From: Bacillota bacterium
GTDB lineage: Bacteria > Bacillota > Clostridia > Christensenellales > Pumilibacteraceae
NCBI GenBank assembly: GCA_009787685.1
Contig: WQSV01000001.1
Span: 1 to 53,266 of the forward strand
Direction: 5' to 3'
Length of the DNA stretch: 53,266 nucleotides
The stretch's first letter is position 1; the number at the start of each line of letters is the position of its first letter. The notes beneath the pieces were generated by a model. It was not told the DNA's origin. It ran no database searches and was given only the letters and a program-made list of their open reading frames with translations. Positions 6,636 to 53,266 of the stretch are shown piece by piece. The position numbers and the translations under genes are program-made.

Positions 6636-6857
6636 TTAGTTCTTATTGCGGTAGGTTATTCTTCCTCTTGTTATGTCATAAGGTGACATTTCAATTTTGA
6701 CTTTGTCGCCGAGAAGAATTTTGATGTAGTGCATGCGGATTTTACCAGAAATCGTGCATAGAACTATGTGTCCGTTGTTGAGTTTAACACGGAATGTTGC
6801 ATTGCGAAGTGCTTCAATCACTTCTCCTTCTGCTTCAATGCTATCGTCTTTTGGCAT
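6636..6857 (-). CDS. infA: translation initiation factor IF-1
   Basis: [48 protein letters not shown]; SD aaggagattt. Confidence 0.95.
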
Positions 6858-7084
6858 AAATCTCCTTGTTCAACGCTTAACGCGTAACGCATAACGATTA
6901 TTAAAATTAGTTTGCAAAATTCTATCTTTCGTTATGAATCGTGCAATTGTGAGTTGTGGGTTGATTTTAGCCTTGTCTTTGTTTGTGATTTGGGTATTTT
7001 GGGCAAATTATTACAATCCTGCCGTGGCGTTTCACGACTTTGCAGTTGTTGCACATTGGTTTTACTGATGCTCTTACTTTCATA

Positions 7085-7429
7085 TTATGTCTTCGACACT
7101 TTACTTTTTGTCGTGTCGCCTCCTTTGGTCACTTTGTGGCCTTCGTCTTTTTTGTCCTTGCAGAACATTAATAGTGTTCTTGCAATTTCTTTGTCGTTGT
7201 GAGTTTCTATTTTATCAAGAGAAAGTGTCTCCTCTTTAATAACTAATAAGTGTTTGAATCGTTTTTTTTTCGGATTTTTTCGTTTTCGATATTGCCCATC
7301 AACGATTTCCACAAATTCGTGATCGATGACTTTTGTCACCAAATACATTCTTCCTCTGTCATGTCCCATTGTTGAAATGACGATTTGTCCGAGGGCTGGT
7401 ATCTTGGATGTTTTGGTTCGTTTGTCCAT
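7085..7429 (-). CDS. KOW-domain RNA-binding protein (the small gene found between map and infA in Clostridia)
   Basis: [49 protein letters not shown]. The ATG at 7429 was chosen by homology. SD is weak, so the start is uncertain. Confidence 0.7.
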
Positions 7430-7504
7430 CTTTTCAGTGAATAAATAATAACAATTAGTGGCTAGTGTTTGTGAATTTTTTCGCAAACGATACATTATAG
7501 CATA

Positions 7505-30000: not shown

Positions 30001-30870
30001 GAAGCGTGCATGGAAGATGCAAATTTCAGAAGCATGATTTATGCTGAAAGAAACCGCTTTGAACACGGCGAAGACGTCAGTCTTTTTGTCAAGAATCTTG
30101 AAAATGTTCAAGGTGACGAAAGGGATATCATCATCTTCAGCGTTGGCTATGCAAAAAATGAACACGACAAAGTGACTGCTCATTTTGGTCCACTAAACCT
30201 TGAAGGCGGAGAAAACCGATTGAATGTTGCTGTCACGAGAGCGAAAAGCAAAATATATTTGGTGACAAGCATTGAGCCAGAAGAATTAAATGTTGAGAGT
30301 GCAAAAAACCTTGGCCCAAAATTATTCAAAAGATATCTTGAATACGCTCGAAGCGTTTCGACTGGAGCAACAAAAGAAGTCAAATTATTGCTCTCTTCCC
30401 TCGCTTCATCTCAAACAAAACCAGCAACCGAGTGTCAAAACATAACGACCGAACTAAAAACAGCACTTGAAAAAATGGGATATATTGTCGATGTCAATGT
30501 TGGAAACAGCACAAGCAAGCTTTCCCTTGCTATTTACGACAAGGATTTGGACAGATACGTTCTTGGAATCGAATGTGATTACGATGCATATGCTTCATCA
30601 CCGTCAGTTCTTGAAAGAGATGTTTTTCGTGCAAAATTCCTTGAAAGCAGAGGTTGGAACATCGTCAGAATTTGGTCAAGAGATTTCTGGATTTCAAAAA
30701 GTAAAGTTTTGAATGGAATTGACAAAATAATCAAAGAGATTAAGAGCGAAGCACTTCATGGAAAAAAATCAAAATCCGAAAAGAAAATCGAGAAAAAGTC
30801 CGAAAAGATTAATCCAAATCAACCGAAAACCGCGCTAAAAGAAGTTGCAGCAACAAAAGACAATAAATAA
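27022..30870 (+). CDS. DUF4011-type Upf1-like SF1 helicase fused to a C-terminal DUF559/Vsr-like endonuclease-fold domain
   Basis: 1282 aa. Walker A YGPPGTGKSQT, Walker B ILFDEASQV, motifs VQGDERDIIIFS and LNVAVTRAKSKIYLV. C-terminus YVLGIECDYDAY..ERDVFRAKFLESRGWNIVRIWSRDFW. Confidence 0.8.
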   Translation: MKKIYKFYKDRLIEISGKNRSLYAKKASQTYTYDIGKILEGDEGEIESFVNFLWSAKKPTHEIISKKRKEHILENLKKSKATEAKKAPKGKNGKTVDAPQEEKVKSEAKIAQEERTLMSSQVSKLKNLKRSLEDFERETGRYEMFVGFPFIEGYIGKDTAVKAPLLLFPVVINISENESTVSLELKDGEAIQLNKVFLTAYSRPFKINLDEMNMEFDSLLDAGFRNVDDILGYLRKKGFDISSCPSKKGMMSFDSIKEPTVGSKLTVRNCAVVGRFPLANSIYNDYVALEKKNLSNEAIAALLENKTPKKLKNVDKDVYTVHSLDYAQENAIAELNQHGNMVIYGPPGTGKSQTIVNTITDALCKNKRVLVVSQKKAALDVVFNRLGNLNSKAMYIIDPEKEKLSFFEKVKTQHLEILGEESVNTQEHRLMYQDVTGTLHSEIAHLESISQTLFSPTDFGISLQEMYARSRIINKGDGEYDIYESMLDTPRLMELSHKQLSESIRSIKEKKKGELYYKRIEMQKANPFVEHVKKDLDVHTLNAATTYLNNMLSKRFVPFDMSQFSFLRQLIGFYIENNVPDIHDLKPLIKYSAKRQEERISASEMTQIFSETLEEAKAYVGEWYLLSRILDSKGFATIIDHILMGNLTGIKLLLSALNQYVDIRDMNINLRTFSDEEKIVLKFAYENSVTVNEYNKIIDNILSIRIYHEIVLAEATHQLPLSKIMDFENIKNRIISLKAEQQKVVREICEDNFKNEYKTLYNSNPENNNFFYQISKSQNFMPIRKLVELYHELLFTLYPCWLLSPESVSTLLPLKAGLFDLILFDEASQVFIEAALPTIYRGKNIAIAGDNKQLRPTAHFLRRFMGNDDDDMDMNTVAALEVESLLDLATSRFHSANLNYHYRSRHEELINFSNYAYYHSKLQVAPNMGRNMQTRPIERIKVDGRWIDRRNEAEAKRIVELIKKTLKSRKNNETIGVITFNAEQGTYINDLIDEACMEDANFRSMIYAERNRFEHGEDVSLFVKNLENVQGDERDIIIFSVGYAKNEHDKVTAHFGPLNLEGGENRLNVAVTRAKSKIYLVTSIEPEELNVESAKNLGPKLFKRYLEYARSVSTGATKEVKLLLSSLASSQTKPATECQNITTELKTALEKMGYIVDVNVGNSTSKLSLAIYDKDLDRYVLGIECDYDAYASSPSVLERDVFRAKFLESRGWNIVRIWSRDFWISKSKVLNGIDKIIKEIKSEALHGKKSKSEKKIEKKSEKINPNQPKTALKEVAATKDNK

Positions 30871-39757: not shown

Positions 39758-40984
39758 TTAGTTGCTGAAATCGGGATATAGGTTTCCGTAGATTTCCAGA
39801 ACTTCTTGTTTGGTTATGTTTGGGTCGTAGGTGGTGTAGCGGTCTGATGTCATTCTGCTGTCTTTGTGACCCATTGCGTGTTGACGGAATTTGTCGTTTG
39901 CTCCTAGATAGAATAGGTTTGAGCAGAAAGTATGGCGAAGGCTGTGGAGAGATGTGTCATCAAATTTTAAACCAATTTTGATTAGAAATTCTCTAAACCT
40001 TACCGCATAGTTTGTTCCCTTTCCGTTTTTAAACATCTTGTCCCATTTGGTGCGGAGTATGTCGCAGTAGGCTTGTGAGATTTTGACATAGCCACTTGTT
40101 CCATCGCTTTTTTGGCGATTGACCCATACTCTGTTGTTGTCGAAGTCTGGCTCGCAATTTGGGGCTTCGTTTGCTCGGCATCCAACCATTAAATAGAAAT
40201 CAATCTCGTCAGCGATTTTTGTCTCACCCTTTCTTGCGTGAATGATTTTCTGTTCTTCAATGTCAAACCATCTTCCTTTTACTTTTTCAAACGCTGGGCA
40301 TTTTAGGGTTGAGATTGGGTTTCTTTCGATTATTCCCTCCTCAACTGCATCAGCAAAAGTTAATTTCAAGATTTGTAAAACTTGGACTGGTTGGATTGGC
40401 AGATCTTTCAAGAAAGTTAGAATGTCCAATTTGGTGTATTCATCAATTGGCTTATCTAGTTTTGAAAGGTGCTTGTCTATCATTCCTCGCAATTTCTCAA
40501 AATCGTTTCGATTTGCTTTCGCACTTTTGACACATAGGTCGAACAATATCGGACATTCCCTTTTGAGCCTTGACACAAAACGAGTGTGTTTGAGAATGTT
40601 TTTCAACTCCCTCATTCGCTCCGCTATTTTCTTTTTCAACACTCGGTAGTCCTTATCAATCTCTCTGTGCCAGACCCCTGCTATCATTTTTTGCCATTCG
40701 AATCTTCCGTCTTTTCGCAGACGGACATTTTTTTGTGTTCGCATAAACTCTTGTTCCTCCTCGTTGAGTTGTTTTGAGTTCTCTGCGAATTGACCTTTTT
40801 TAGATGACCCTCCTTCATTTTGTGTAAGATTAGTATAGCATTTTTCGGAATTTTTGTCAACTGAAAAAGGGTTGTTTATCGGTCTATTTTCAATAGAAAA
40901 TGCCACAAATCGCCCAACTGTTTCTGTGAGCGTTGCAATCATTTTGCTCTGTTCAACTAGTTGTTGTTGCAATTCTGCACCCAT
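39758..40984 (-). CDS. int: tyrosine recombinase / phage integrase
   Basis: C-terminal LHSLRHTFCSNLF..AMGHKDSRMTSDRYTTY (R..HxxR..Y catalytic pattern); SD aaaggagc. Confidence 0.85.
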   Translation of the reverse strand: MGAELQQQLVEQSKMIATLTETVGRFVAFSIENRPINNPFSVDKNSEKCYTNLTQNEGGSSKKGQFAENSKQLNEEEQEFMRTQKNVRLRKDGRFEWQKMIAGVWHREIDKDYRVLKKKIAERMRELKNILKHTRFVSRLKRECPILFDLCVKSAKANRNDFEKLRGMIDKHLSKLDKPIDEYTKLDILTFLKDLPIQPVQVLQILKLTFADAVEEGIIERNPISTLKCPAFEKVKGRWFDIEEQKIIHARKGETKIADEIDFYLMVGCRANEAPNCEPDFDNNRVWVNRQKSDGTSGYVKISQAYCDILRTKWDKMFKNGKGTNYAVRFREFLIKIGLKFDDTSLHSLRHTFCSNLFYLGANDKFRQHAMGHKDSRMTSDRYTTYDPNITKQEVLEIYGNLYPDFSN

Positions 40985-41010
40985 TGTTTTTTGCTCCTTT
41001 CGTTTTCGTA

Positions 41011-42054
41011 TTAACTGAAAATATCTTCATCTTCATTGATTACACCGAACATCATTATTTGATCGGCAGTCATTGGTTGGTTTGGTTTTGGCATTGGGAT
41101 TGGGTTTTCTGTTTTTCCGAATTCCCATAGGAAGTGGATTCTGCGTTTGAACGCTTCAAAGGTTTCTGGTTCTTCTTGTTGTATTAAGGGGTATTGGGAA
41201 TTTAGCGGAATGTTGCTTGCTATGTAGACTGTGTCGTAGCAGGCGGTTTTGTTGTTGTAGCGAGCGGGTAAATCTAAGGGGTAGCCGTCGAGTTGCTTTA
41301 AGATGTCGGATATTTTTAGGTGGGAGCGGAACTCGTCGAATAGGACTATTTTTTGTCCTTTGTAGGTATCCCACATGGAGCGGTCATAGTTCGTCACGAC
41401 ATAGACATTTTCATAGCCATATTTTTCCATAACATGACGAGTTTTTCCAACTCCTGTTTTACTCCAGATGTAGGTTGTGGTTAATTGGCGAAAGGTTTTT
41501 CGGAAAATCTCTTGTCGTTGCTCGTCACGAGCAGAAACATAGGCTTTAATGCGGTTTGAATAGAGCAAGAATTGTGATGGATAGGCATTTTGAATTTCTG
41601 CCATGCTTGCACCTTCTTCTAGTAGCATGATGATGTTTCTTAGGTCGTTGCGTTTGCCTTGTTCTTCTTCAAGGTTGATTTCGCCATTGCCTATTGGCTC
41701 GCCGATACGCGTTTCAGTTTTTGTCACATAGTCATAGGCTTGCCTTCGTGTGCCTCGTCTTTCTTCAATGTGGGCGAATGGGATTTTTTTCTTCAAGGTT
41801 GAAAAGCGTATGGGCTCAATGTTTTCGATATATATTTGATAGTGTTCGTAATCAGACTTTTCGCCTTTTTCGAGTTGCCCTATCCAAGTGTAAGGAGAAA
41901 GTGCTTCTATTAAATCGGCTTGCGAAATCTTTTCTGCTGATTGAGTGACGAGCCATGAGCGTGAACGGGTGTCTCGCTTTTTGTTTTCTTTTGAGTTGTT
42001 TTCGCTTTCTTTTGTTTCAGTTTCATTGTTAATGGTTGTTTCAATTTGCTCCAT
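41011..42054 (-). CDS. rep: rolling-circle replication initiator: HUH endonuclease plus SF3 helicase (CRESS-like Rep architecture)
   Basis: Motif I SWLVTQS, motif II HYQIYI, motif III YDYVTK, Walker A SKTGVGKT, Walker B IVLFDEF, motif C IASN. Confidence 0.75.
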   Translation of the reverse strand: MEQIETTINNETETKESENNSKENKKRDTRSRSWLVTQSAEKISQADLIEALSPYTWIGQLEKGEKSDYEHYQIYIENIEPIRFSTLKKKIPFAHIEERRGTRRQAYDYVTKTETRIGEPIGNGEINLEEEQGKRNDLRNIIMLLEEGASMAEIQNAYPSQFLLYSNRIKAYVSARDEQRQEIFRKTFRQLTTTYIWSKTGVGKTRHVMEKYGYENVYVVTNYDRSMWDTYKGQKIVLFDEFRSHLKISDILKQLDGYPLDLPARYNNKTACYDTVYIASNIPLNSQYPLIQQEEPETFEAFKRRIHFLWEFGKTENPIPMPKPNQPMTADQIMMFGVINEDEDIFS

Positions 42055-42721
42055 AGTTGCCTCCTATATCAAAAAATGATTGTTGGTTTTTGTAGCGATT
42101 AAGCCTTGCAGTTGCTTTTTGAAAGTAGGTTTTGTCGATTTCAAAGCCTAGATATTGAAATCCTGCTTTGTGGCAAGCAATGAGAGATGAAGCACTTCCG
42201 ACATGAGTATCGAGAATTCTATCGCCTTTTTTTGCGAATAGGTTGAGTATCCATGAGTAGAGTTTGATTGGTTTTTGTGTTGGGTGGAGTCGTTCTTCGT
42301 TTGCAGTGCCTTGCGGAACACATTCAAAAATTTTTGCGTTAGCGTTAAAACTTGTCCAAGCGTATTCGCACATAGCCATTGTAAATTTTTCGCCGATTGT
42401 TAGTTTTCGCCAAACTGCAAAACAGCGAGTAGGTGGAAGGTCAAAGTAGTTCCCACCCCAAATAATCTGATTTTTGCTGACTCGAAAAAGTTCGTTGAAA
42501 TATTCTTTTTTGGGAGCGATATCCCAATCAATGATTTTCTTTTCAATTTTTTTCTTGTTGAGAGCGTTTCGCCCTCGCCCACCAATGAAAGGTTTTTCAC
42601 ATTCAAAGTTAGCGTTGCCATATGGTGGGTCAACGATAGCAAGTTCAAAAAAATTATCTGGAATGGTTTTCATAGCGGTTAGGCAATCCATATTGTAGAG
42701 TTTGTTTAATTCAAAATTCAT
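42041..42721 (-). CDS. beta-class DNA methyltransferase (N6-A or N4-C)
   Basis: LYNMDCLTAMK..AIVDPPYG (motif IV) lies before ..RILDTHVGSASSLIACHKAGFQYLGFEID (motif I). ATG 42721 was chosen; the ORF part 42722-42946 covers GC-rich hairpins. Confidence 0.8.
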   Translation of the reverse strand: MNFELNKLYNMDCLTAMKTIPDNFFELAIVDPPYGNANFECEKPFIGGRGRNALNKKKIEKKIIDWDIAPKKEYFNELFRVSKNQIIWGGNYFDLPPTRCFAVWRKLTIGEKFTMAMCEYAWTSFNANAKIFECVPQGTANEERLHPTQKPIKLYSWILNLFAKKGDRILDTHVGSASSLIACHKAGFQYLGFEIDKTYFQKATARLNRYKNQQSFFDIGGNYGAN

Positions 42722-42847
42722 TTTTGTTTTTGTCCTTTTTGAAGTCATTGATTTTAGTTTGAACACAGCCAGCACAAAAGGGTTGAAAACCCTGTCACAG
42801 TCACAGTAGTTATCTAAAAGGTAACAATAGGCTTTTAGAATGATTCC

Positions 42848-42954
42848 GCCCGCCGCAAGCGGCGGGCAAAGTGTCGCCACAGGCAAAACGGGGGGCAAGC
42901 CCTGTTCCGTTTTTTGCCTGTGCGTGCTTCTTGTTATGTCACGCATAGTGCGTG
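42848..42954. other. cluster of GC-rich hairpins (candidate replication origin or packaging signal)
   Basis: gcccgccgc-aa-gcggcgggc. cacaggcaaaacgg..(gggc-aa-gccc)..ccgttttttgcctgtg. cacgca-tag-tgcgtg. Local GC is far above the surroundings. Confidence 0.5.
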
Positions 42955-42975
42955 TTTAAAGCGTTGTTTTGCGGT

Positions 42976-43392
42976 TTAAGGCAAGTTCTCGCTTTGTTGA
43001 AGCAATTGTTGTTGTTCGTTGTTGCCTTGTTGCAATGCTTGTTGCGACTGCATTTTGAGAGCGTTTTCAAGGTCTTTCAATGCTTGTTCTGAAACCTTTT
43101 TTGCTTTTGTTTTTCTCTCAATTGTGTCGTTGGGTGAGAGAAATTTTGCTTCCTTTTTGATTGCTTTCCAGTCTTTTTTGAAAGCCCATAGGATTGTTTT
43201 GGCAAAGTATAAGACAACATTTTGCCCTAGAATTACCTTGTTGCTTTCTTCAGAGTTTGGAAAAACTGAATGAATATCTGGTGCAGTTTCCCCAATGCTC
43301 ATGAGATGCATATATGCTTTTTGGGCAGGGTCAGTTAGTAGGTCTAAATATGACAGTGCTTTTTTTCTTGTTTTCTTTTTGTTGAAAAACAT
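42976..43392 (-). CDS. hypothetical protein
   Basis: 138 aa; SD cggagaat. Confidence 0.5.
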   Translation of the reverse strand: MFFNKKKTRKKALSYLDLLTDPAQKAYMHLMSIGETAPDIHSVFPNSEESNKVILGQNVVLYFAKTILWAFKKDWKAIKKEAKFLSPNDTIERKTKAKKVSEQALKDLENALKMQSQQALQQGNNEQQQLLQQSENLP

Positions 43393-43437
43393 TTTGTTTT
43401 ATTCTCCGTTAAAAATTATTTTTTGTTCGTCAAATAA

Positions 43438-43466
43438 GTGACTTCTATGATAAAATATGGTATAAT
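43438..43466 (+). promoter_or_regulatory. promoter of the KilA-N gene (extended -10)
   Basis: gtgact .. tgGTATAAT; SD aaaaggag before the ATG at 43491. Confidence 0.5.
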
Positions 43467-43490
43467 GAAATCATAAAAAGGAGTTTAAGT

Positions 43491-44313
43491 ATGTCAAAAT
43501 CACTTGAAATTAAAGGGATTGATATTGGTTACAAGAAAATCAATAAGGAAGATTATATCTCTCTCACTGATATGGCAAAGTATAAAAACGCGGAAATTCC
43601 TGCTCATGTCATATCACATTGGCTAAGCACTAAATTCGCAGTTGAGTTTTTGGGCATATGGGAAAAAACAAACAAACCCCAATTTTAACCTCACGGAATT
43701 CCGTGACATTAGAAATGATAGTGGTGGCAGTTTCACTCTCTCCCCTAAGCAATGGATAGAAAAAACTAATGCAATCGGATTGGTTTCAAGTGCAGGAAGA
43801 TATGGCGGAACTTTTGCTCACAAAGACATTGCTTTTGAATTTGCTACTTGGTTGAGTGCTGAATTCAAGTTTTGGATTATTCAAGAATTCCAACGCTTAA
43901 AGTCTGATGAATAACAATTGATAGCGTGGAGTGCAAAAAGAGAGCTCGCAAAAATCAACTATCACATTCAAACGAGTGCAATTGCACAGAATTTAATAGT
44001 GCCAACATTGACTGCAAGTCAAAAAAGTTTTGTTTATGCTGATGAAGCAGATTTGTTAAATGTTTCACTTTTTGGAATTACTGCATCAGAATGGCGAAAA
44101 GCAAATAAGGATAAAGACGGAAATATTCGTGATTATGCATCAATTCATCAACTGTTGGTTTTGGCGAACATGGAAAGCTACAACGCAATCATGATTAAAG
44201 ACAAATTGAGCCAACCAGAAAGACTTGACAAATTAAACGAGATGGCTCGTCAACAATTGCAAGTTTTGTCACAGGTTGAAAATAGGCTATATCTTCCAAA
44301 AAAAGACGATTAA
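43491..44313 (+). pseudogene. KilA-N domain protein, disrupted by one frameshift (about 43672-43680) and one in-frame TAA (43915-43917)
   Basis: Three consecutive ORFs together read ..DYISLTDMAKYKN..FLGIWEKTN / NPNFNLTEF..GRYGGTFAHKDIAFEFATWLSAEFKFWIIQEFQRLKSDE* / QLIAWSAKRELAKINYHIQTSAI.. Confidence 0.75.
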
Positions 44314-44346
44314 TTCAAAGCAGTGTCCTTGTGGCACTGTTTTCTT

Positions 44347-45120
44347 TTACGCTCCTTTTCTAAAGGCTTTTGGCACTTCGATTTGGGGAAGTCCACCATG
44401 ACCGCCGCAGTGGAAGTCTTGGTTGTCTTTGCCTTCTAGGAAATATTTGTGGTAGCCGTAGGAGTTGTAGCAGCTGAAGATGTTGCCCCAGTATTCGTAA
44501 GAAGTTGGCATTCCTTCGTTGAAGTTTGACTTGGTGTCGGAAAAGCGTTCTGCACTTTCTGTTGATGGGAACTCTAGACATTGCCATTTTGTGTGGATAA
44601 TATTTCCGAATTTGTCCTTGCTATGTTTTAGGTCGAGAATGAAAATGAAGCGTTCACATAAACCACGAATTGCCTTGTCAATGCTAACTGGTCGTTGGCA
44701 AGTTAGGACAATGTCTAGGTGGTAGTGGCGGTGTTGGGCAAAATAGTTCACAACAAAAGGTGGAATATATTTTCGCCTGCTGTCGTAATACATTTGAGCC
44801 TCGTCAAGTCCAATGAACGCATAAGGTGGAAGATAGACCGTTTCATGATGGGGGTTTGAATACCCTATTTTCCAACCATCAACGAATCTGTTTTTGAGTG
44901 GTCGTTGGAACTCTTTTCGCAAATAGACATCATAGTCAGTATAGACTAGGTGGTTTTTGAGTTGTGATAGGTTATGCCCTACTCTGTTGAGTGAGCGGAC
45001 ATATTGGCGAAGTCTTGAAATGTCAATCAACGCGTTTTCCCCACTCATTTTCATCAGTGCGAACAATGTTGCGAGTGCTGTTTTGCCAGAACCTATATCG
45101 CCAGAGATTATTGATAACAT
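44347..45120 (-). CDS. Zot / pI-like P-loop morphogenesis ATPase
   Basis: MLSIISGDIGSGKTALA (Walker A) .. FIGLDEAQMYY (Walker B) .. HRHYHLDIVLTCQRP. No C-terminal TM segment is seen. Confidence 0.55.
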   Translation of the reverse strand: MLSIISGDIGSGKTALATLFALMKMSGENALIDISRLRQYVRSLNRVGHNLSQLKNHLVYTDYDVYLRKEFQRPLKNRFVDGWKIGYSNPHHETVYLPPYAFIGLDEAQMYYDSRRKYIPPFVVNYFAQHRHYHLDIVLTCQRPVSIDKAIRGLCERFIFILDLKHSKDKFGNIIHTKWQCLEFPSTESAERFSDTKSNFNEGMPTSYEYWGNIFSCYNSYGYHKYFLEGKDNQDFHCGGHGGLPQIEVPKAFRKGA

Positions 45121-45122
45121 TG

Positions 45123-45269
45123 TTAATCCCTCCTAAACAGTCTGAAAAACGCGATAATTAATTTTACAAGCAAGCGAAGTATCCACGCTAAAATCTTGAA
45201 TGGCAACATGATAATGAACTTCACGACAGAAAAAATCATTAATATCGCCTTGATTAGTAGATATATCAT
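45123..45269 (-). CDS. 48-aa hydrophobic protein with a basic C-terminus (coat-protein-like)
   Basis: MIYLLIKAILMIFSVVKFIIMLPFKILAWILRLLVKLIIAFFRLFRRD; ATGA overlap with the upstream gene. Confidence 0.5.
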   Translation of the reverse strand: MIYLLIKAILMIFSVVKFIIMLPFKILAWILRLLVKLIIAFFRLFRRD

Positions 45270-47272
45270 TCGTTTTTCCCTCCTGCGACTTTCACAATAA
45301 CAACAATTATTGCTATTACTGCGACAACGACTCCTGCTAAGATGAGCCAGAAAATAAGTTCTTCTCGGCTTATACCCAAGAGTGCTGCGAGCCAATTTAG
45401 AAACCTATTCAACAAATTGTTTGATGGTGGAACTTCCGATGGTGGAGTTATTTCTGGAATGATGTCTTGTGGACTTGACACAACTGGAATGACTGTCATT
45501 TCGCCTTGATGGTTGAAAGTGAGTGATATTATGTCGAAATCGAAGAACACTGTTGCTTGTGCGATATATGCCTCGCCCTCTCGGAGTTGCCAAGGGAATA
45601 TGTTGTTGCCTGTTGAAATGGTTATTGCTCTTGCGAAATATTCAGTCTGGGCGAATCGGAACAAAAATGTTGTTTCGTTTTTTGCGTTGGCGGTTGCGTT
45701 GAATTGCCTAAGTCTCTCGACATCATTGTAGTGGATTAATAGTTCGTTTGCGACACTGACTCTGTTTCCATTTAAGATATTTGCGTTTGATATTTTGAAG
45801 ATTGGACTTATGTTTTGCCTCTCGTCTACCCTTATTGAATCGCCACCACTTCCAGTGAATCGTTGCCACCATGTTTGATTTTCTTCAAAACGCATTAAGT
45901 CAAAAGTGTCATCATCTGCATCAATATCCCTTAGTTGATGTCCTGCAACTCTGCCCTGTTCAGTGCTGACACGACATAGATTTGGCGAGAATAGTTCTTG
46001 CGGAATTTGTCGTTCTCTGACTGATAGGAATTGGTTGTTCAGTGAGCCGAATCTGTGGTTATAGTTGAATATCCAGTCTGCCAAAGTTTCACTACTGATT
46101 CCACCACCGAATGGCTCACCTCTTCTAAACTCGGTTATCTCGTCAACAAAAAAAGCGTAGTGCAGACTGTGTTGCCAACGACTGATGGGAAAGTTTGCAT
46201 TAACCATGCCGTTAAAAGTCCAGTTCGCCCTTGCACTATTAACGAACACTAAAAATGCGTCTGTTATGACAAGGTCGCGATAAAGCGAGTAACCAATGTT
46301 TTCATTAAAGACAGTTCTGCTTTGCGTTGTTGTTTCTAGCCTTCTTCCGATACCATGATTTAGCACATTGTTGTAAAGACTTCGCCTACTCGTCACCAAA
46401 ATATTGCAAGTCCGATATTCCCACCACTCCGCTCGTATTCGTTGTAATCTTCCGAACTCATGAAGAATCCTGTTTGGAACGCTGAAAAACACGCTGTCGA
46501 TTTGGTGGTGGTAGCCTGCACGAGTGAGTGGAGCGATTGCGTCAGAGCGAAAGAATGTGTGGTTAACATCTAATTCGATTGTTTTGAGTTCTGAAATTTC
46601 GTGTCTTAGGGTGCTGTCTGCGTTTAGGTTTGGCCCTAAGCCTTGGGCGAATCCAGAGAATGTGACGGTTTGAGCAACGACAAATTCTGTTGCGTTTTGT
46701 TGACCCATAATGTGGAGTTCAATGCCAGAAATGTCATATCGCCTGTTGTGAATTTTTTCGAGTCTGCTTGTTAATTGCCATAAATCCTCTTGACTAAAAT
46801 TGACTCTGAATTTCCAAAACAGTCTGTGGAAATCGCCAGTTGAAAAGTTCATCAATCGCAATGGAAATTTGCGATATGCGACAGGTTTTCCGTCAGCGTT
46901 ATATTCATATGCCATTTGGATAGCGTGATTAGATGAATATGGCATGAAATTTAGTTGTCGTGGGTTGTAGACATAGATATATAGTCCAAAATTTCCTCTA
47001 AGAAATGGACTATGCGACCAGCCAAATTCAATGAAATTAATCACGCGAAGTTCGCCGTTTTCGTTGAATGGAAAATCATTTATGTTGAAGTTTGGGTCGT
47101 TTTTGAGGTCATACATGACATATCGCTCTGAAAATGCTGATAGCGTTTGTGGCGAGTTTGCTCTTGCAGTTTGCAAATTGCAACTTGGAATCACTGCAAA
47201 AATTGTTAGAAAAATAATCACAATTGCAAACAAAATTTTTTTGATATTAAGGTGTTTAATCATTTTTGTCAT
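45266..47272 (-). CDS. large secreted protein with a C-terminal membrane anchor (pIII-like position)
   Basis: ATG at 47272 preceded by aggagg. N-terminal signal/TM ILFAIVIIFLTIFAV, C-terminal TM LILAGVVVAVIAIIVVIV. Confidence 0.6.
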   Translation of the reverse strand: MTKMIKHLNIKKILFAIVIIFLTIFAVIPSCNLQTARANSPQTLSAFSERYVMYDLKNDPNFNINDFPFNENGELRVINFIEFGWSHSPFLRGNFGLYIYVYNPRQLNFMPYSSNHAIQMAYEYNADGKPVAYRKFPLRLMNFSTGDFHRLFWKFRVNFSQEDLWQLTSRLEKIHNRRYDISGIELHIMGQQNATEFVVAQTVTFSGFAQGLGPNLNADSTLRHEISELKTIELDVNHTFFRSDAIAPLTRAGYHHQIDSVFFSVPNRILHEFGRLQRIRAEWWEYRTCNILVTSRRSLYNNVLNHGIGRRLETTTQSRTVFNENIGYSLYRDLVITDAFLVFVNSARANWTFNGMVNANFPISRWQHSLHYAFFVDEITEFRRGEPFGGGISSETLADWIFNYNHRFGSLNNQFLSVRERQIPQELFSPNLCRVSTEQGRVAGHQLRDIDADDDTFDLMRFEENQTWWQRFTGSGGDSIRVDERQNISPIFKISNANILNGNRVSVANELLIHYNDVERLRQFNATANAKNETTFLFRFAQTEYFARAITISTGNNIFPWQLREGEAYIAQATVFFDFDIISLTFNHQGEMTVIPVVSSPQDIIPEITPPSEVPPSNNLLNRFLNWLAALLGISREELIFWLILAGVVVAVIAIIVVIVKVAGGKNE

Positions 47273-47864
47273 TTGTTGCCTCCTGTATCTGATTTTTGGT
47301 TTTCTCAATTTCTGCAACTAGAATTTCGCCCTCAATTTCCAGTGGCAATAGTTCAAACAGCAACTCGCTTCGCCTTGCACTCAAAAACATCATGCGTTGA
47401 AGTTGCGTGATATTGATTTTCTGATTGGCTAGAATTTCGGCATATTCAGAGTCAACTGCGTTTAGTTGAGATTGCAATATAGAAATCACATTAGTGACGA
47501 GCGTTAGTCTTTCGTTGAGTAGTTGCAGTCGTGCAGAGTAGTATTCAAGCCTTAGATTATGTTGTTCTTGTTCAAGTTCGACGAGTTCTCGTTCAAGTTC
47601 TTCTGTTTCGTCGCTGTTGACTTGTGGTGGGTTTTCAATCTCTCGCTCCAAATCGTTGATGATGTTTTGATAATTTTCTTTTGAAGAATTTCCTGCATTT
47701 TCGCCAGAGAGTAGTCCTTGCTCATACGCTAAATCCAAATATTCATATGGAAACCGCTCTTCCCCGCTAATTCGTGATTGAATGTTTTCCCAGTTTAGAT
47801 AGATGACGAAACCTCCGACAGCAAGAAGTACGACAACAACTAAAAATCCTAAAAACTTTTTCAT
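47256..47864 (-). CDS. membrane-anchored coiled-coil protein
   Basis: N-terminal TM followed by heptad-rich E/L/Q sequence; ATGA overlap with the upstream gene. Confidence 0.55.
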   Translation of the reverse strand: MKKFLGFLVVVVLLAVGGFVIYLNWENIQSRISGEERFPYEYLDLAYEQGLLSGENAGNSSKENYQNIINDLEREIENPPQVNSDETEELERELVELEQEQHNLRLEYYSARLQLLNERLTLVTNVISILQSQLNAVDSEYAEILANQKINITQLQRMMFLSARRSELLFELLPLEIEGEILVAEIEKTKNQIQEATNDKND

Positions 47865-48793
47865 GCCGTCACCCCCTTTCCTGCAATCCGCTCTCTTAAC
47901 GCACCAAGTCTTGTCGTGAACTCATTTTGACTTAAAATCAAGCCCTCTTTCATGTTTTCGGCGATTGCTTGTTGCATTATTTTTTGCTCGTGAATTTGAC
48001 TGAATTGTTGTAGCATTGCGTAATATCTGTTGACTCTTGATTGAGCCGACTGAGCCGACAAATCCGCTTGCCAACGACTGTAAGTGTAGCCACCCCATCT
48101 GTTAAACCAATACGCCCAAGGAATACTCCCATGAGCGAAACTGTTCATTTGAGTTTGAGCATGGGAAAGCCTGTTTTGATAATGCTCCGCGAGTCCACTA
48201 TATCTCGACAACTCTCTCAACCAAAAATTGTGCAAGTTGAAAACTTCGTCAAGAGTGTAGTCATATGGAAAGGCAAAAATTAAGGATAAAATATCGCTCA
48301 ACCACCAACTCAAATATTCAATGTCAGTTGCGATTCTTGATAAAATTGCGACATAAATTTGTTCAAGAGTTTGCAGAAATTCTAGTGAGTTTGAGTCGAT
48401 TAAATCGCCAAGTCCGTAGTCAATGAGTTGAATAATAAGGTTGTGAAGGGTGTTAATATGCGACATTTGGGATAGAATTTGTTCGCTCAAATTTGCAATG
48501 ACTGACTCTAAATATTCTCGCATTTCATGATACTTTTGAGTCCAATATTTGACCTCGTTTTCCAATTCTTCGATTTTAACACGCAATTCCTGCCTTTCTC
48601 GTGCATTCAGTGAGTAGCCACTAGCAAAACCATTGCGATATGCCTCTTCAATTTCTCGCCTAGTGACAGTTCGCTCTTCGTTGTTTGAGTAGTCAAAATT
48701 GTCGCAACCGACAACAAAAAACATAGTGCTTGTTAGAATTGTAATGAACACTGCAACTAAAAAATACTTGCTTAAAGACTTGAAAAATTTCAT
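47861..48793 (-). CDS. lipoprotein, unknown function
   Basis: MKFFKSLSKYFLVAVFITILTSTMFFVVGC lipobox; SD gaggggg. Confidence 0.6.
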   Translation of the reverse strand: MKFFKSLSKYFLVAVFITILTSTMFFVVGCDNFDYSNNEERTVTRREIEEAYRNGFASGYSLNARERQELRVKIEELENEVKYWTQKYHEMREYLESVIANLSEQILSQMSHINTLHNLIIQLIDYGLGDLIDSNSLEFLQTLEQIYVAILSRIATDIEYLSWWLSDILSLIFAFPYDYTLDEVFNLHNFWLRELSRYSGLAEHYQNRLSHAQTQMNSFAHGSIPWAYWFNRWGGYTYSRWQADLSAQSAQSRVNRYYAMLQQFSQIHEQKIMQQAIAENMKEGLILSQNEFTTRLGALRERIAGKGVTA

Positions 48794-48794
48794 G

Positions 48795-50621
48795 TTAGCC
48801 CCCTCTCTTCTTTTTTCTGATGACAACAAATGCAATGACTGCTCCAGTGAGAATAATTAATATTAGTCCTGCAATTATCCACACTAACCTGTTTTGCCAC
48901 CAAGCAATGTCGCTCTCTGACGGGAGTGGCTCAAACCTTGCGAATAGTTCAATATTTGTTGTTAGCCTATCAAGGTGTGACACTCTTTGCGTGAATGCTT
49001 CGTTGTGATACCATGCAACAAAAACATAGCCAAAATGTTCTGGAGTGAACAGATTGTTTAGTCTTTCGTTGTGTGGAATCCAATGAGTTGTTCTTTGCCC
49101 TCGAACATTGAAAGTTATTGAGTTCATTATGGCGAACTCGGAGTTTGCGAATAACTCAATGTCGCTAGTTATTGCGGTAGCAAGGCAGAATGCTTTTGAC
49201 TCAAAAGAATCAATGAACACTTCTGTCATTTGCCCTGTTTCAATGTTGAGTAGGGTCACTTGCTTTAGTGTTGTTCCATAATTCACAACAATTTCTTGCC
49301 ACACTTCTCCACCAACAATGAACGAGATAGTAAAACGCATGATTTCCCATCTTGCGAAGAACTGCTGATTTCCAAAAGTTCCAGTCTCAATTTGAGTCAC
49401 TGCTTGCCCAGAGAACGCAGAGTTCCGATACCACCCTCTAAAGTAATGCCCAGAGCGATTTGGGGTTGGGAGCGTTATATTTGGGCATTCGATTGTAAAA
49501 GTTGTGTTTGGTGTTGACTCAAAAAAACCTCCGTTTAGATTGAAAATGATGTCGTAAGTGACTACATTCCAAAGAGCAAAGAACGAGCGATTGTCGATTG
49601 AATTTGCAACAATTTCAGTTATTGGAGTTCCGACAAGAGCAATATTGTTAAACCAACCACCGAAATAATATCCGTCACGAGTTGGAACTGGGAGCGTGAT
49701 TGTCGGACTATTAACAGTGAATGTCGTTGGAGCATTTGACGGGAGAATTCCTCCGTTAAGGTTGTATGTAATAGTGTAGACAATGACTTCCCATCTAGCA
49801 TAAAACCGCTGATCACCAATCGTTCCAGTCACAATTTGAGTTGTTGGCGAGCCTGTGAAAGCGGAGTTGTTATACCAACCTTGAAAGGTGTAGCCCCGCC
49901 TCGTTGCAGTAGTAAGTGTTAAGTCTGGCGAAAGAACAGTGAATGTTGATGGAGCAATGCTGACAAAACTTCCCCCACCCAATGAGAAACTTATCGTGTA
50001 AGTAATAGGGACAAACTTTGCATGAAGTTCCATATCCCCAGTAACTGGTCTGCCGTCGAAAGGTTGAGTGAACTCTGAATCAAAAAACCAACCACAAAAT
50101 GTGAATCCATCTGGTGTAGGTGGTGTTGGTAAAACTATTGACATAAAATAAATTCGCCAACCTGCTGTCCCTATGTTAATTCCACCATAATTACGAACTG
50201 CACTTGTTATTAATAAAATTCCATTATTAAGTAATTGATTGCGATGATTATCTAATAAATTTTCTGCTGAAATAATAGCAGAAAACAATCTTAAACTACT
50301 ATCAAATTGAATTATTTTTAAATTCGTTGCTATCAAATCTCTGTTGCCAGTTCCAGAATTTCCCACAAAAAGCAAGAAATCTTCTTCTACAGCATCCAAA
50401 AAGTTTTCAAAATTAAAGTTAATTGGATTGTTTATTCTTATATTTACAGATATAAACTTTTGATCTAATGTCTGAGTTGAGAATAACTCCTCATGTGTTC
50501 TATCTACAGCATTAGATTGAATTTCATCACCCCCAAAAATCATTGCAACCGCAAATACAACTAAAAGCATTGCAACAATGAATACCATTTTTCCTTCTTT
50601 TCTTAGAATCATTTTTTTCAT
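48795..50621 (-). CDS. surface protein with at least 4 Listeria-Bacteroides (Flg_new-type) repeats and a C-terminal TM anchor
   Basis: Repeats of ..Y.I.F.LNGG....P..FT...P.I.LP.P.R.GY.F.GW..N.AF.G..; C-terminus IIAGLILIILTGAVIAFVVIRKKKRGG. Confidence 0.7.
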   Translation of the reverse strand: MKKMILRKEGKMVFIVAMLLVVFAVAMIFGGDEIQSNAVDRTHEELFSTQTLDQKFISVNIRINNPINFNFENFLDAVEEDFLLFVGNSGTGNRDLIATNLKIIQFDSSLRLFSAIISAENLLDNHRNQLLNNGILLITSAVRNYGGINIGTAGWRIYFMSIVLPTPPTPDGFTFCGWFFDSEFTQPFDGRPVTGDMELHAKFVPITYTISFSLGGGSFVSIAPSTFTVLSPDLTLTTATRRGYTFQGWYNNSAFTGSPTTQIVTGTIGDQRFYARWEVIVYTITYNLNGGILPSNAPTTFTVNSPTITLPVPTRDGYYFGGWFNNIALVGTPITEIVANSIDNRSFFALWNVVTYDIIFNLNGGFFESTPNTTFTIECPNITLPTPNRSGHYFRGWYRNSAFSGQAVTQIETGTFGNQQFFARWEIMRFTISFIVGGEVWQEIVVNYGTTLKQVTLLNIETGQMTEVFIDSFESKAFCLATAITSDIELFANSEFAIMNSITFNVRGQRTTHWIPHNERLNNLFTPEHFGYVFVAWYHNEAFTQRVSHLDRLTTNIELFARFEPLPSESDIAWWQNRLVWIIAGLILIILTGAVIAFVVIRKKKRGG

Positions 50622-50660
50622 TTATTAAATTTTTCTCCTTTGACATTTTTAATAAAATGT

Positions 50661-50900
50661 CTATTGCTTTCTCTCTGCAATCGAAACTTTGTGTCCCTTG
50701 CTTTTGAGTCTGTCAACATACTTTTCCAAAACATGATGTGGAATGCCGCACATATTTTCACGCTTGAAACCAACATCACGACTGGTTATAACAAGGTCTA
50801 GTTCTTTTGCGGCAACTTCAGCATCCTTTCCAAACAATTCAAAAAAATCGCCAACCTGATAGAACAACAATGACTCGTTATTCCTTTCTTTGAGCGACAT
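50661..50900 (-). CDS. stand-alone MutS domain I (mismatch-binding domain)-like protein, probably the -1 frame extension of the upstream gene
   Basis: SLLFYQVGDFFELFGKDAEVAAKELDLVITSR..MCGIPHHVLEKYVDRLKSKGHKVSIAE. The homology continues upstream of the ATG (TPLFREY). Confidence 0.6.
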   Translation of the reverse strand: MSLKERNNESLLFYQVGDFFELFGKDAEVAAKELDLVITSRDVGFKRENMCGIPHHVLEKYVDRLKSKGHKVSIAERKQ

Positions 50901-50971
50901 ATATTCCCTAAACAGCGGTGTCGCATTTTGTGGAATTGGCGATTTTTGAATTATTGGAACAGTGACAACCT

Positions 50972-51559
50972 CTAACTTGCCGTTTTTTTTTGAGAGTTTG
51001 GCAACTGTCCGCTGTTGGCTTTAAATTCGTCAATTTTTGCTTGTGACTTTGCTCCAGCAGTGACTAATGCGTTGCCAACACCCCTTAAATGCTCTCTGCG
51101 AACTTCTGTTGAACTATTATTGAATTTTCTTGCAGTGTAATTGTAGGCTTCGCCTGTTTTTCTGTCACGATTGAATAGTCCAAGCCTTATGCCTTTTTGA
51201 GTGTCGGTCAAGGTTTCCCCTGTCCTTGAATCAATTCCGCTTTCGAGCTCTTTCCAGTAGCGGTTTCGTTGCTGTTGCGGTGTTTCAAAAAAACTTTTGC
51301 TGATTTCCTCTTTCGCTGATTCTAACGACTTTCCTGCAACAACGGCTCTCACAATCTTTTCACGATACCCAAGTTGACCTATTCTCAACGGGGTGGTTTT
51401 TCCACCGAATTGGCTTGACCCAGTATTCAATTCGTTTTCATACCTCTCAACAATTTCTCTGTCCGAATTCGACAAATGCCCAAACAAATCTTCTTTGACT
51501 GGTGCTTCTTTTGTTTTCGTTGTTTTTGTTTTTTGTTTCTTTTCTTCTTTTTTTGACAT
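50972..51559 (-). CDS. hypothetical basic protein (0-frame product)
   Basis: 195 aa; SD cggaggat; ends 3 codons after an A9 tract. Confidence 0.55.
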   Translation of the reverse strand: MSKKEEKKQKTKTTKTKEAPVKEDLFGHLSNSDREIVERYENELNTGSSQFGGKTTPLRIGQLGYREKIVRAVVAGKSLESAKEEISKSFFETPQQQRNRYWKELESGIDSRTGETLTDTQKGIRLGLFNRDRKTGEAYNYTARKFNNSSTEVRREHLRGVGNALVTAGAKSQAKIDEFKANSGQLPNSQKKTAS

Positions 51560-51876
51560 TATTTTTTATCCTCCGATTGTCTAATTTTTGTGCCATTGGC
51601 ACTTTTGTCTTGACATGATTGAAATTACTATCATGATACCCGACTAGCCTGTGGTGGCACACCACTGTGCAGAGATTGAGCAGACCCTCCATCCCTTCTG
51701 CCCAATCACAGCACGACACTTTTGGCACTCCCCAGCCGCCCACGCGAAAATGCTTTATGCTCCATGCCTAAATCAAAAACTTCATGAATGTGTCAATATC
51801 TGACTTAAAAAAAATTTGATTTTTTGTTTAGACATGAGCAGAAAACAATTTTCGCCCCTGTGCCAAGTGCAGTTTT

Positions 51877-52395
51877 TTATTGTTTTTGAATCTGACTATT
51901 CCTCAAATCCCTAAACTCTTTTTGAGTCAAGACTTTGAGATTCTCCCTTCCGCACATCAGAAGCTCTGCTCTCTTTTCTTCGTTGCGAACATGAACAAAC
52001 TCAAGTGCATCCCCGAATGGACTATGTAAGTTCATGTCGAGATAAGTTAGCATTTTGCGACTTTTTTTGCTCATATATTCAGCAAGATAGATGTCACACT
52101 TAACAGGAATACTTCGCTCCTCACTGTCACGCAATCGTTCTTTCACGCGATAATTAAAGCGACCTCTTCTTGAATTTTCTCTGATAGATAGCGTTACCTC
52201 ATCTCCAAATTCGTCAAATGGGTGCTTGATTGTGATGATAACTTCTTCCGTTTCTTTTCTCGTTCTAAAATTTTCAACCCATTCAAGTTTGACACTTCCC
52301 TCAACGGAAATCATGTTTGCCAGTTGCTTTTGAGTTTTCGCTGAACTCTCTTTCTTCATTTTTTCTTCTGTTTTTTCGTTTTCAATGTTTGACAT
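51877..52395 (-). CDS. hypothetical protein
   Basis: 172 aa; SD aaaaggag. Confidence 0.5.
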   Translation of the reverse strand: MSNIENEKTEEKMKKESSAKTQKQLANMISVEGSVKLEWVENFRTRKETEEVIITIKHPFDEFGDEVTLSIRENSRRGRFNYRVKERLRDSEERSIPVKCDIYLAEYMSKKSRKMLTYLDMNLHSPFGDALEFVHVRNEEKRAELLMCGRENLKVLTQKEFRDLRNSQIQKQ

Positions 52396-52474
52396 TTTTC
52401 TGTCACTCCTTTTTTTTTGTTTTTAATTTTTGTCTGTTTTCTTGTTTTTTAGGGTCAGGGTCGCAGACCCACCC

Positions 52475-52705
52475 CTATTCCCTAACTGGCATTACGAATT
52501 TAATATTCACTTCAAATGCCATTTTCCGAGCCATGTTTATGCAGTCCAATAAGTCCGAATACAATCCGTTGCAACAATACATAAACTTTCCGTTCTGGTT
52601 ATATATAACAATCCGAAATGTCTTTTGCTCTTCGTTCTCTAAAACAGAAATGTAATAGTTCTTTTTCAGCCTCATAAACTTGCCTAAGTTTTTCATTCTG
52701 CTCAC
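52475..52705 (-). CDS. hypothetical small protein
   Basis: 76 aa; GTG start at 52705, 5 nt after aggagg. Confidence 0.45.
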   Translation of the reverse strand: MSRMKNLGKFMRLKKNYYISVLENEEQKTFRIVIYNQNGKFMYCCNGLYSDLLDCINMARKMAFEVNIKFVMPVRE

Positions 52706-52798
52706 TTCATCCTCCTTCGTGCTTATGGCACTTTTCCGTTTGGGAAATTATCCCCTACACTATATAGGAGATGAGAAAGCACTTTGTTGTGGTTGTTT

Positions 52799-53202
52799 TT
52801 AAAAATAATTTAAAATATTTCTAATTTTTTTATGTATGACTTCCAATTGCCTCTGCACATTACTAAAATCAATCTCTAATAATTTCCCAATCTCACGCAA
52901 AGTCATATTTTCAAGATAATACAACCGCAAAATTTTCGTTGCTTTTGATTGAGTTGAGAAATAGCATTTCTTAAATCCTTTCTTGTTGAAATTTTCTCAA
53001 CCTCACTTTCCACGCACGAGTCACCAGAAGGCTCAAACCCAATTTCCGCTTGCAACCTATCAAGCGAACTCTCGCCCCTCCAACGCATTTTGCGTTCCTC
53101 ATTCTCTTTTTCAAGTTCAAGCGTTTCAAGAAGTTTTGCAACCTCCTCACTCACTTCAATCTCAACGGCTTGTCCATTCCACAATGTGTAATTTGTTTTC
53201 AT
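52799..53202 (-). pseudogene. sigma-70 region-4-like HTH protein, frameshifted at an A4T4 run (52929-52936)
   Basis: The 0-frame ends ..QLNQKQRKFCGCIILKI*. The -1 frame continues QRKILRLYYLENMTLREIGKLLEIDFSNVQRQLEVIHKKIRNIL, a typical region 4 HTH. Confidence 0.65.
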
Positions 53203-53266
53203 TTTTAACTCCTTTTCCGATTTTTTATAAAATCAGAGCAGGGTTAAAAATTCGGACAAAAAAAAG

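Follow-up and report, generated by a model that had tools for sequence, protein, structure and literature searches.

The window analysed here comprises all 53,266 nucleotides (nt) of contig WQSV01000001.1 from a Bacillota bacterium (assembly GCA_009787685.1), the distal part of which is an integrated element resembling an inovirus. On the minus strand of this element, an open reading frame (ORF) of 195 amino acids (aa), ORF195, ends just past a tract of nine adenines (A9), and the overlapping -1 frame encodes domain I of the mismatch repair protein MutS (MutS-I). With confidence that is evenly balanced, ORF195, a linker and the MutS-I module are read here as one two-domain gene split over two frames at A9. 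This split-gene reading is the most economical one, and it matches the build of most of the MutS-I modules recovered. We infer that slippage takes place at A9 and that the fusion, not the 79-aa frame called inside the -1 frame (ORF79), is the working form. The features of the locus are as follows, with structure predictions made by AlphaFold2 (AF2).

50972..51559, minus strand: ORF195, the 195-aa product of the 0 frame, with a K-rich disordered N-terminus and a mostly helical core, of no known family
50983..50991, minus strand: A9 tract, proposed as the place where transcripts gain one A (+1) and/or ribosomes shift by -1 (direct reading)
50972..51020, minus strand: overlap zone, open in the 0 frame as well as in the -1 frame (codon-by-codon reading)
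50901..50984, minus strand: linker in the -1 frame, without a canonical start, NGKLEVVTVPIIQKSPIPQNATPLFREY (codon usage, Pfam, AF2)
50670..50921, minus strand: MutS domain I module, residues 214-297 of the fused product, corresponding to positions 1-85 of the 113 in the Pfam profile (Pfam, alignment, AF2, Foldseek)
50661..50900, minus strand: ORF79, a gene-finder call from ATG 50900 to TAG 50661 that would start in the middle of helix alpha1 (called in two sources; P0007)

Two Reading Frames Overlap at an A9 Tract

ORF195 runs from 51559 to 50972 on the minus strand, and its 3' end reads ...CCA AAC TCT CAA AAA AAA ACG GCA AGT TAG. The A9 tract lies at 50991-50983 (T9 on the plus strand) and contains the heptamer A_AAA_AAA at 50990-50984, in X_XXY_YYZ phase relative to ORF195, with the 0-frame TAG (50974-50972) following 3 codons past the tract. 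The -1 frame is free of stops from 51020 to 50661, bounded by a TAA at 51023-51021 and a TAG at 50663-50661; its translation contains ..KKNGKLEVVTVPIIQKSPIPQNATPLFREYMSLKE.. and continues for 107 codons after the heptamer. The first canonical start in this frame is ATG 50900, that of ORF79, and codon-by-codon reading found no ATG, GTG or TTG between the upstream stop and that position. A -1 shift, or one added A in the mRNA (A10), gives an ORF195-MutS_I product of 299 aa. A preliminary description of this DNA, made from its letters, had proposed the slippery tract, the phase of the heptamer, the stop 3 codons on and an open -1 frame past the tract, all of which are borne out by direct reading.

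Under the split-gene reading, standard decoding would give the 195-aa protein of ~22 kDa, the same protein that occurs alone in a relative (contig L001), and a minority of expression events would enter the -1 frame at A9. The shift would arise from RNA polymerase adding a non-templated A (A10 mRNA), from ribosomes slipping -1 on A_AAA_AAA, or from both. The shifted product, 299 aa and ~34 kDa in size, would consist of the ORF195 core, a disordered P/Q/K-rich linker of ~20 residues and a C-terminal MutS-I. ORF195 would thus be the main product and ORF195-linker-MutS-I the minor one.

The MutS Domain I Module

The fused 299-aa product matches Pfam MutS_I (PF01624) over residues 214-297 with a score of 83.8 bits (E 1.3e-23), for which the Pfam gathering cut-off is 20.6 bits. 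ORF79 alone reaches 77.9 bits over profile positions 9-85, meaning that the 7 residues ahead of ATG 50900 raise the score by 5.9 bits. Alignment to E. coli MutS spans residues 11-95 of that protein and begins at T11 (TPMMQQY = TPLFREY), where the window side of the alignment start is TPLFREYMSLKE. In addition, GDFFE aligns with GDFYE at residues 34-38 of E. coli MutS, and the Phe-X-Glu contacts F36 and E38 are kept. The earlier expectation that homology to MutS begins upstream of ATG 50900 thus holds, as the profile match starts at position 1 and the E. coli alignment at T11, and the Pfam score supports the assignment of the -1 product to MutS domain I. Since the family match starts upstream of its ATG, the annotated ORF79 represents a domain with a truncated N-terminus.

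Structure prediction agrees with this assignment. The AF2 model of the fusion, made with a 5-sequence alignment, has a predicted local distance difference test score (pLDDT) of 86-95 over residues 211-299, places helix alpha1 at residues 215-226 with M221 (ATG 50900) in mid-helix, and leaves residues 183-206 disordered. All of the top 50 Foldseek matches are MutS/MSH domain I, with root-mean-square deviations (rmsd) of 1-3 A and E-values down to 1.5e-7; among them, domain I of Taq and E. coli MutS superposes at an rmsd of 1-2 A over 82-92 columns.

The module shares the domain I fold and the Phe36/Glu38 pair with canonical bacterial MutS, which extends from Pfam MutS_I to MutS_V. Unlike canonical MutS, it ends at profile position 85 of 113, and the ORF terminates 2 residues further on, leaving the domain incomplete; domains II-V and the ATPase are absent, and a Pfam scan of the fused product found no other MutS domain (II-V, ABC ATPase). 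Because these parts are missing, the module cannot by itself be a mismatch-repair sensor. The MutS-I segment is ~45% identical to cellular and to polyvalent versions (43-48% to Clostridia-type MutS). Placing it in either the polyvalent or the cellular clade was attempted and dropped, as the profile scores tie (102.6 bits polyvalent vs 102.4 bits cellular), in a comparison in which leave-one-out scoring separates the two reference groups cleanly.

MutS Domain I outside MutS

A genome scan for MutS-I returned 19 loci, at 18 of which the domain lies deep within a giant protein of Clostridia or Bacteroides, 570-1000 residues from its beginning. Pfam scanning of three of these giants detected MutS_I in all three and an Eco57I-type methylase together with SNF2/ResIII in two. 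The giants belong to the polyvalent proteins of conjugative elements and phages reported by Iyer, Burroughs, Anand, de Souza and Aravind (2017; PMC5512222), who described their MutS-I as a binder of single-stranded DNA (ssDNA) features and gave the polyvalent proteins as its sole occurrence outside MutS. As in the window, the polyvalent MutS-I lies outside MutS, is borne by a mobile element, lacks connector, clamp and ATPase, and is joined to unrelated partner domains. Its Pfam span of ~2-86 (L009, L016, L024) compares with 1-85 in the window, and the FYQVGDFFE signature is common to both. The role proposed for the polyvalent domain, directed at ssDNA or distorted DNA of an incoming or replicating element, fits the ssDNA inovirus-like host of the window module. 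The partners differ, being giants of 2-15 domains (ArdC-N, MTase, SNF2) in the polyvalent case and one 195-aa protein of unassigned fold in the window, where the module is C-terminal, ends earlier and is joined to its partner only via a change of frame. An early domain end is also seen in polyvalent versions, and several viral versions end near 91-95. ORF195 itself has no polyvalent conflict domain in Pfam, PHROG, PDB or BFVD, and no similarity to polyvalent proteins.

An alignment-based scan of IMG/VR returned 80 loci. At 45 of them the domain does not begin a long protein of the MutS type, and 37 of those 45 (among L039-L106) were examined. In the examined loci, MutS-I is the C-terminal or the sole recognisable domain, with the exception of L092, where RadC follows it; the proteins are either short (open frames of 121-346 aa) or 580-810 aa in length. 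A canonical start, ATG or GTG, lies at least 6-8 residues upstream of TP..Y/alpha1 in 37/37 loci, and alpha1 is fully encoded in all 37 viral proteins and in the 18 giant conjugative-element proteins. Most of the viral ORFs end 4-39 residues past the VAICEQ strand, as in the window, and MutS-I is preceded by other sequence in most loci. Small accessory proteins of diversity-generating retroelements (DGRs) that resemble MutS, named MSL and 112-283 aa in size, have been described as well (Wu et al., 2018; PMC5758913). The view that a phage protein carrying only MutS-I is unusual was therefore overstated, given the precedents in PMC5512222, PMC5758913 and the 37 IMG/VR loci.

The short viral MutS-I proteins and MSL resemble the 299-aa fusion in being small and in having MutS-I as their only recognisable domain, and most have a 30-190 aa N-terminal region with a low-complexity linker and a stop soon after the VAICEQ strand. 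Unlike the window, the short viral proteins are uninterrupted ORFs with a canonical start before alpha1, and their N-terminal parts (ParB_N, ArdC-N with MPTase, PcfK-like, 'family A') are unrelated to ORF195. Both ORF79, at 79 aa, and the fusion, at 299 aa, fall just outside the MSL size range. The DGR context expected for an MSL, an adjacent reverse transcriptase (RT), avd and a template repeat/variable repeat (TR/VR) pair, was not seen in the visible part of the element: a crude regular expression, used without a positive control, detected no RT-like motif in either the window or L001, and the two copies of the sole long direct repeat (49339/49783) share 72% identity, their mismatches showing no bias towards A.

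Several architectures occur among the viral proteins (e.g., at loci L047, L058, L072, L092 and L102), comprising ParB_N + HTH_ParB + MutS_I (~680 aa), ArdC-N + MPTase + MutS_I (~805 aa), MutS_I + RadC (337 aa), PcfK-like + MutS_I, and versions of 120-160 aa. An unnamed N-terminal domain of ~250 aa, referred to as 'family A', recurs with MutS-I.

Probable Translation of the Stretch Upstream of the Annotated Start

In the 84-nt linker, the first 20 residues are predicted to be disordered, and the last 7 (TPLFREY) form the first half of the MutS-I helix alpha1. The part of the -1 frame outside ORF79 includes NGKLEVVTVPIIQKSPIPQNATPLFR, and the peptides encoded upstream of ATG 50900 include LEVVTVPIIQK and SPIPQNATPLFR. 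In the -1 frame, the codon usage of the linker scores +6.6 bits, at the 34th percentile of true coding windows; among stop-free windows, 8.9% of the intergenic and 2% of the off-frame ones attain this level. The scan of the minus strand between the two ORFs (50900-50972) found no promoter-like or terminator-like site. As for Shine-Dalgarno (SD) sequences, ORF195, whose N-terminal peptide is MSLKER..., is preceded by GGAGGA (-9.5 kcal/mol), and ORF79 by an SD-like AGGGA at 50909-50905 (-4.8 kcal/mol), which takes rank 34 of 53 and is weaker than that of any other gene scored in the element. Taken together, the family match of the last 7 residues, their place in the predicted helix, the codon usage of the linker and the weak SD of ORF79, which are not fully independent lines of evidence, indicate that the stretch between the tract and ATG 50900 is probably translated.

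ORF195 and Its Only Relative

ORF195 has no match in Pfam, PHROG, PDB (by sequence and Foldseek) or BFVD, with nothing found by Foldseek at or below 1e-3. Its AF2 model is of moderate quality, with core residues 30-130 at pLDDT 71-91. An exhaustive HMMER search of 1.84e9 representatives returned ORF195 itself (P0001), one protein of 59% identity (P0002) and a spurious repeat protein (P0006). No relative was found in the IMG/VR scan, and a Joint Genome Institute (JGI) metagenome scan gave only the L001 contig again, on which P0002 is encoded. P0002 ends in KIDEYKVNRNT-TGA, ~10 residues short of the position of the tract in the window, and has no A-run.

The slot taken by MutS-I in the window is occupied in L001 by an unrelated 157-aa Cys-rich ORF (6766-7239; CxxC..CC.C), for which Pfam gave no match. 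L001 and the window are also unlike in the genes that lie between ORF195 and Zot, which suggests a variable accessory and adsorption module.

For the 107-aa product of the -1 frame, single-sequence patterns found no close relative in IMG/VR, and a word-indexed protein search gave the query only. Among phage GenBank records, blastn gave no match. Matches obtained there with tblastn were set aside as uninformative, as H1, H2 and H8 are full-length MutS genes in unannotated 'Bacteriophage sp.' contigs; several further matches carry a mutS annotation.

Possible Slippage at the A9 Tract

Baranov et al. (2005; PMC1088944) document productive transcriptional slippage at A or T runs that are 9 nt long. 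Examples are the A9 of Thermus dnaX, at which ~50% of the product is altered, and Shigella mxiE, in which two ORFs become one through the insertion of a single nt (+1). They also recognise a class of disrupted ORFs whose frame can be restored at A9 or T9, and note that some AT-rich genomes tolerate such runs. The window shares with this class, which includes Shigella mxiE, transposases of IS elements and Thermus dnaX (PMC1088944), a 9-nt homopolymer on the sense strand at which one non-templated nt unites two overlapping ORFs, and a short product that ends a few codons on. Unlike in members of the class, slippage in the window is a prediction from sequence, the tract is not conserved in a second lineage, and the AT-rich host may or may not slip at A9.

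The window also resembles -1 ribosomal frameshifting, as in E. coli dnaX (A_AAA_AAG) and phage G/GT, in its in-phase X_XXY_YYZ heptamer and in the short and trans-frame products that share an N-terminus. Unlike those systems, it has neither an SD-like stimulator nor a stem-loop, and it encodes neither a tail chaperone nor a clamp-loader subunit. In E. coli, A_AAA_AAA is a weaker ribosomal shifter than A_AAA_AAG. Because there is no downstream structure and no upstream SD-like stimulator, a classical ribosomal frameshift signal of the dnaX type is not supported. The comparison with dnaX and G/GT made in the preliminary description is no more than formal; for an A9, transcriptional slippage of the mxiE or Thermus dnaX type (PMC1088944) is the closer parallel.

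Weighing the Split-Gene Reading

Several observations count against a gene split at A9, the first group of which concerns recoding signals. In the 104 nt after the tract, the minimum free energy (MFE) is -16.7, compared with -16.95 +/- 2.9 for shuffles (z = 0.09), so that the downstream stimulatory structure that might accompany programmed slippage is not seen; no SD-like or GGAGG-like sequence lies 8-15 nt upstream of the tract. Conservation of the site could be judged from one relative only, L001, which lacks both the A-run and the MutS-I gene. There the sole homologue of ORF195 stands alone as a complete gene, closed by a stop of its own and followed by an unrelated ORF, from which it follows that ORF195 does not need MutS-I, and the slot after ORF195 looks like a variable cassette position. 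A kinship of ORF195 with the N-terminal partners of MutS-I elsewhere was rejected by phmmer, blastp and hhalign. In addition, the weak SD-like AGGGA 4-5 nt before ATG 50900 makes independent initiation possible. All of the contigs bearing A9 are identical, leaving the length of the tract without independent confirmation. Programmed slippage, one of the explanations first proposed, is shown by nothing in the data, given the missing stimulator and an L001 homologue with its own TGA and no A-run.

The geometry adds further points on the same side. An ordinary host gene contains an A9 as well (7262-7270), random in-gene positions keep the -1 frame open for at least 28 codons in 15% of cases, and a second gene end in the element (47879-47873) likewise has a heptamer 3 codons before the stop and the next gene in the -1 frame. 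The coding strand is A-rich, with 85 A/T runs of at least 7 counted, and the window's ORFs of at least 80 aa contain as many as 31 in-phase A7 heptamers. A/T runs of at least 9 are rare, with 4 in 53 kb, 2 of them in coding sequence. The tract and the open frame are therefore weak evidence alone, and the geometry is mildly unusual. It is because the MutS_I homology runs across ATG 50900 that the case exceeds chance.

The other three runs of 9 lie at window positions 7262-7270, 52410-52418 and 1454-1462. The first encodes PKKKR within an ordinary host ORF (7085-7495); of the other two, one is in the 5' leader just before the ATG of ORF172 and one is intergenic. At 47873-47879, an in-phase A_AAG_GGG lies near the end of ORF324, with the next gene (47256-47864) in the -1 frame; this arrangement looks like an ordinary 4-nt gene overlap with a very strong SD (-16.7 kcal/mol).

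An arrangement of two ordinary genes, rather unlikely on balance, would have ORF79 translated from ATG 50900 as a 79-aa minimal MutS-I, the phase of A9 being coincidental and its Lys-Lys part of a non-conserved tail. Calls of ORF79 by gene callers in two sources (one P0007), the AGGGA before its ATG and the 77.9 bits that it reaches alone for MutS_I are all consistent with such an arrangement, as are the autonomy of ORF195 in L001 with a different gene downstream, the 31 in-phase heptamers, the like coincidence at 47879-47873 and the lack of a stimulatory structure. However, the start would then fall within predicted helix alpha1, a position seen in 0 of 37 viral proteins and 0 of 18 embedded domains; the 7 residues upstream of the ATG still match the MutS_I family, and the upstream 84 nt are coding-like in the -1 frame. 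The SD of ATG 50900 is, moreover, the weakest among the element genes scored.

It is improbable that the locus is a broken or phase-variable gene, in which a continuous frame (e.g., A10) lost one A and is now a pseudogene or in an OFF state, any fusion being leakage. Homopolymers of at least 9 are hypermutable in both replication and transcription, and disrupted ORFs restorable at A9 or T9 form a recognised class (PMC1088944). The linker and alpha1 are intact and coding-like, as expected shortly after a lesion, and all of the contigs derive from one clonal sequence, in which a lineage-specific mutation is possible. On the other hand, ORF195 in L001 stops naturally at about the same place without MutS-I, implying that the short form is normal, and in the window the 0-frame stop comes just 3 codons past the tract, giving a clean short product. 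Furthermore, MutS-I has diverged to ~45% identity from every other MutS-I; that it nevertheless retains its motif residues and a score of 84 bits speaks for selection on the coding sequence over the long term.

A homopolymer error in sequencing or assembly, with the real DNA carrying A10 (or A7) and a plain 299-aa ORF, is very improbable. Homopolymers are the commonest sites of indel errors, and two 13.6-kb contigs that consist of the element alone (L002 and L003) match the window with 100% identity throughout the 8295 nt fetched and have a contig end in common with it, so that all three may stem from related read sets; for this reason L002 and L003 were rejected as independent support for A9. 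Against an error, A9 is present both in a JGI assembly and in a MEGAHIT-style (k141) assembly from the European Nucleotide Archive (ENA), whose contig is reported in 2 samples, and assemblies of short reads seldom have a wrong consensus at an A9.

Least probable of all is a MutS-I protein of ~97 aa initiated independently of ORF195 at a non-canonical ATA or ATT (..CCA ATA ATT CAA.., ~50954-50949): these codons lie in the -1 frame upstream of TPLFREY with a GAGG further upstream, and their use would allow the whole of alpha1 to be translated without recoding, but the GAGG is 14-17 nt from ATA/ATT, beyond useful SD spacing, 37/37 viral relatives examined use ATG or GTG, and bacteria very rarely initiate at ATA or ATT.

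The Inovirus-Like Host Element

The window from 1 to ~39 kb is bacterial chromosome, with genes for SecY, urocanase, histidine ammonia-lyase and an aminoacyl-tRNA synthetase. The remainder is the element, whose assigned features are the following.

39758..53266, minus strand: inovirus-like integrated element (Pfam and PHROG)
39758-40984: tyrosine integrase of the element
41011-42054: Rep of the element, with Viral_Rep and superfamily 3 (SF3) helicase domains
42041-42946: N6/N4 methyltransferase (MTase) of the element
44347-45120: Zot-type ATPase of the element

L002 and L003 end at the same base as the window's contig, and the far end of the element lies beyond the window. L002 was considered as a closed circle and rejected, as its 40 extra bases do not close. 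No tRNA was found at the element for an att site, and an Rfam scan of the element gave nothing relevant. The replication intermediate of the element is presumably ssDNA.

Upstream of ORF195 lies a gap of 317 nt (window 51560-51876, minus strand; L001:5850-6189) in which most aligned columns are identical between the window and L001, a conservation far above that of the flanking ORF195 (59% at the aa level). The gap is relatively G+C-rich and folds as ssDNA into a long hairpin (MFE -54.3 vs -33.5 +/- 3.6 for shuffles; z = -5.7). It has no Rfam match, and gene callers render it as a spurious 'GGWGVPKVSCCDWAEG' extension. This region is a candidate for an inovirus-type origin or packaging region, or for a structured leader of ORF195.

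The gene that follows MutS-I (48795-50621) encodes a 608-aa protein with five Flg_new (Listeria-Bacteroides repeat) units, an N-terminal hydrophobic segment and, at the C-terminus, a membrane anchor that precedes a basic tail; the protein may serve the element in adsorption or as a surface protein. A 105-nt direct repeat at 49339/49783 mirrors the Flg_new repeats of the protein. In the host chromosome, a 1282-aa protein encoded at 27022-30870 (plus strand), on the strand opposite to its neighbours, carries DUF4011, an AAA_11/AAA_12 helicase and an MTES_1575 nuclease, resembling a defence-like helicase-nuclease.

Meaning of the Proposed Split Gene

By analogy with the MutS-I domains of polyvalent proteins, the module in the window would most likely tether its partner to distorted, mismatched or single-stranded DNA rather than serve in repair. 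As a matter of speculation, its target could be imperfect hairpins in the ssDNA intermediates, origin or packaging region of the element, or the module could compete with host MutS there. That A9 is a selected recoding switch, fixing the ratio of the 195-aa protein to the MutS-I-bearing form in a filamentous-type prophage, is a tentative possibility. If it were so, the locus would represent a slippage-controlled member of a broad and largely undescribed set of phage MutS-I proteins that target DNA. To our knowledge, no MutS-I module has been reported from an inovirus-like ssDNA element before, and the locus would then also be the first such case.

Both MutS-I outside MutS in mobile elements and the fusion of ORFs by A9/T9 slippage are already known. 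What is new is that both come together at one locus, that the host element is inovirus-like, and the frequency with which small proteins of viral contigs carry MutS-I as their C-terminal or sole domain. The survey finds this placement to be common in IMG/VR, an occurrence wider than the statement of 2017 that limited MutS-I outside MutS to polyvalent proteins. Should the fusion not be real, the locus would be of minor importance, an ordinary accessory gene whose start is mis-called or whose domain is clipped. If the fusion is real, the locus would be a compact case of A9 recoding that adds recognition of DNA lesions or ssDNA to a phage protein, in an element whose genome is probably single-stranded. 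It could, in addition, offer a clue to the roles of orphan MutS-I domains, which may lie in guarding or marking imperfect hairpins or in interfering with host mismatch repair.

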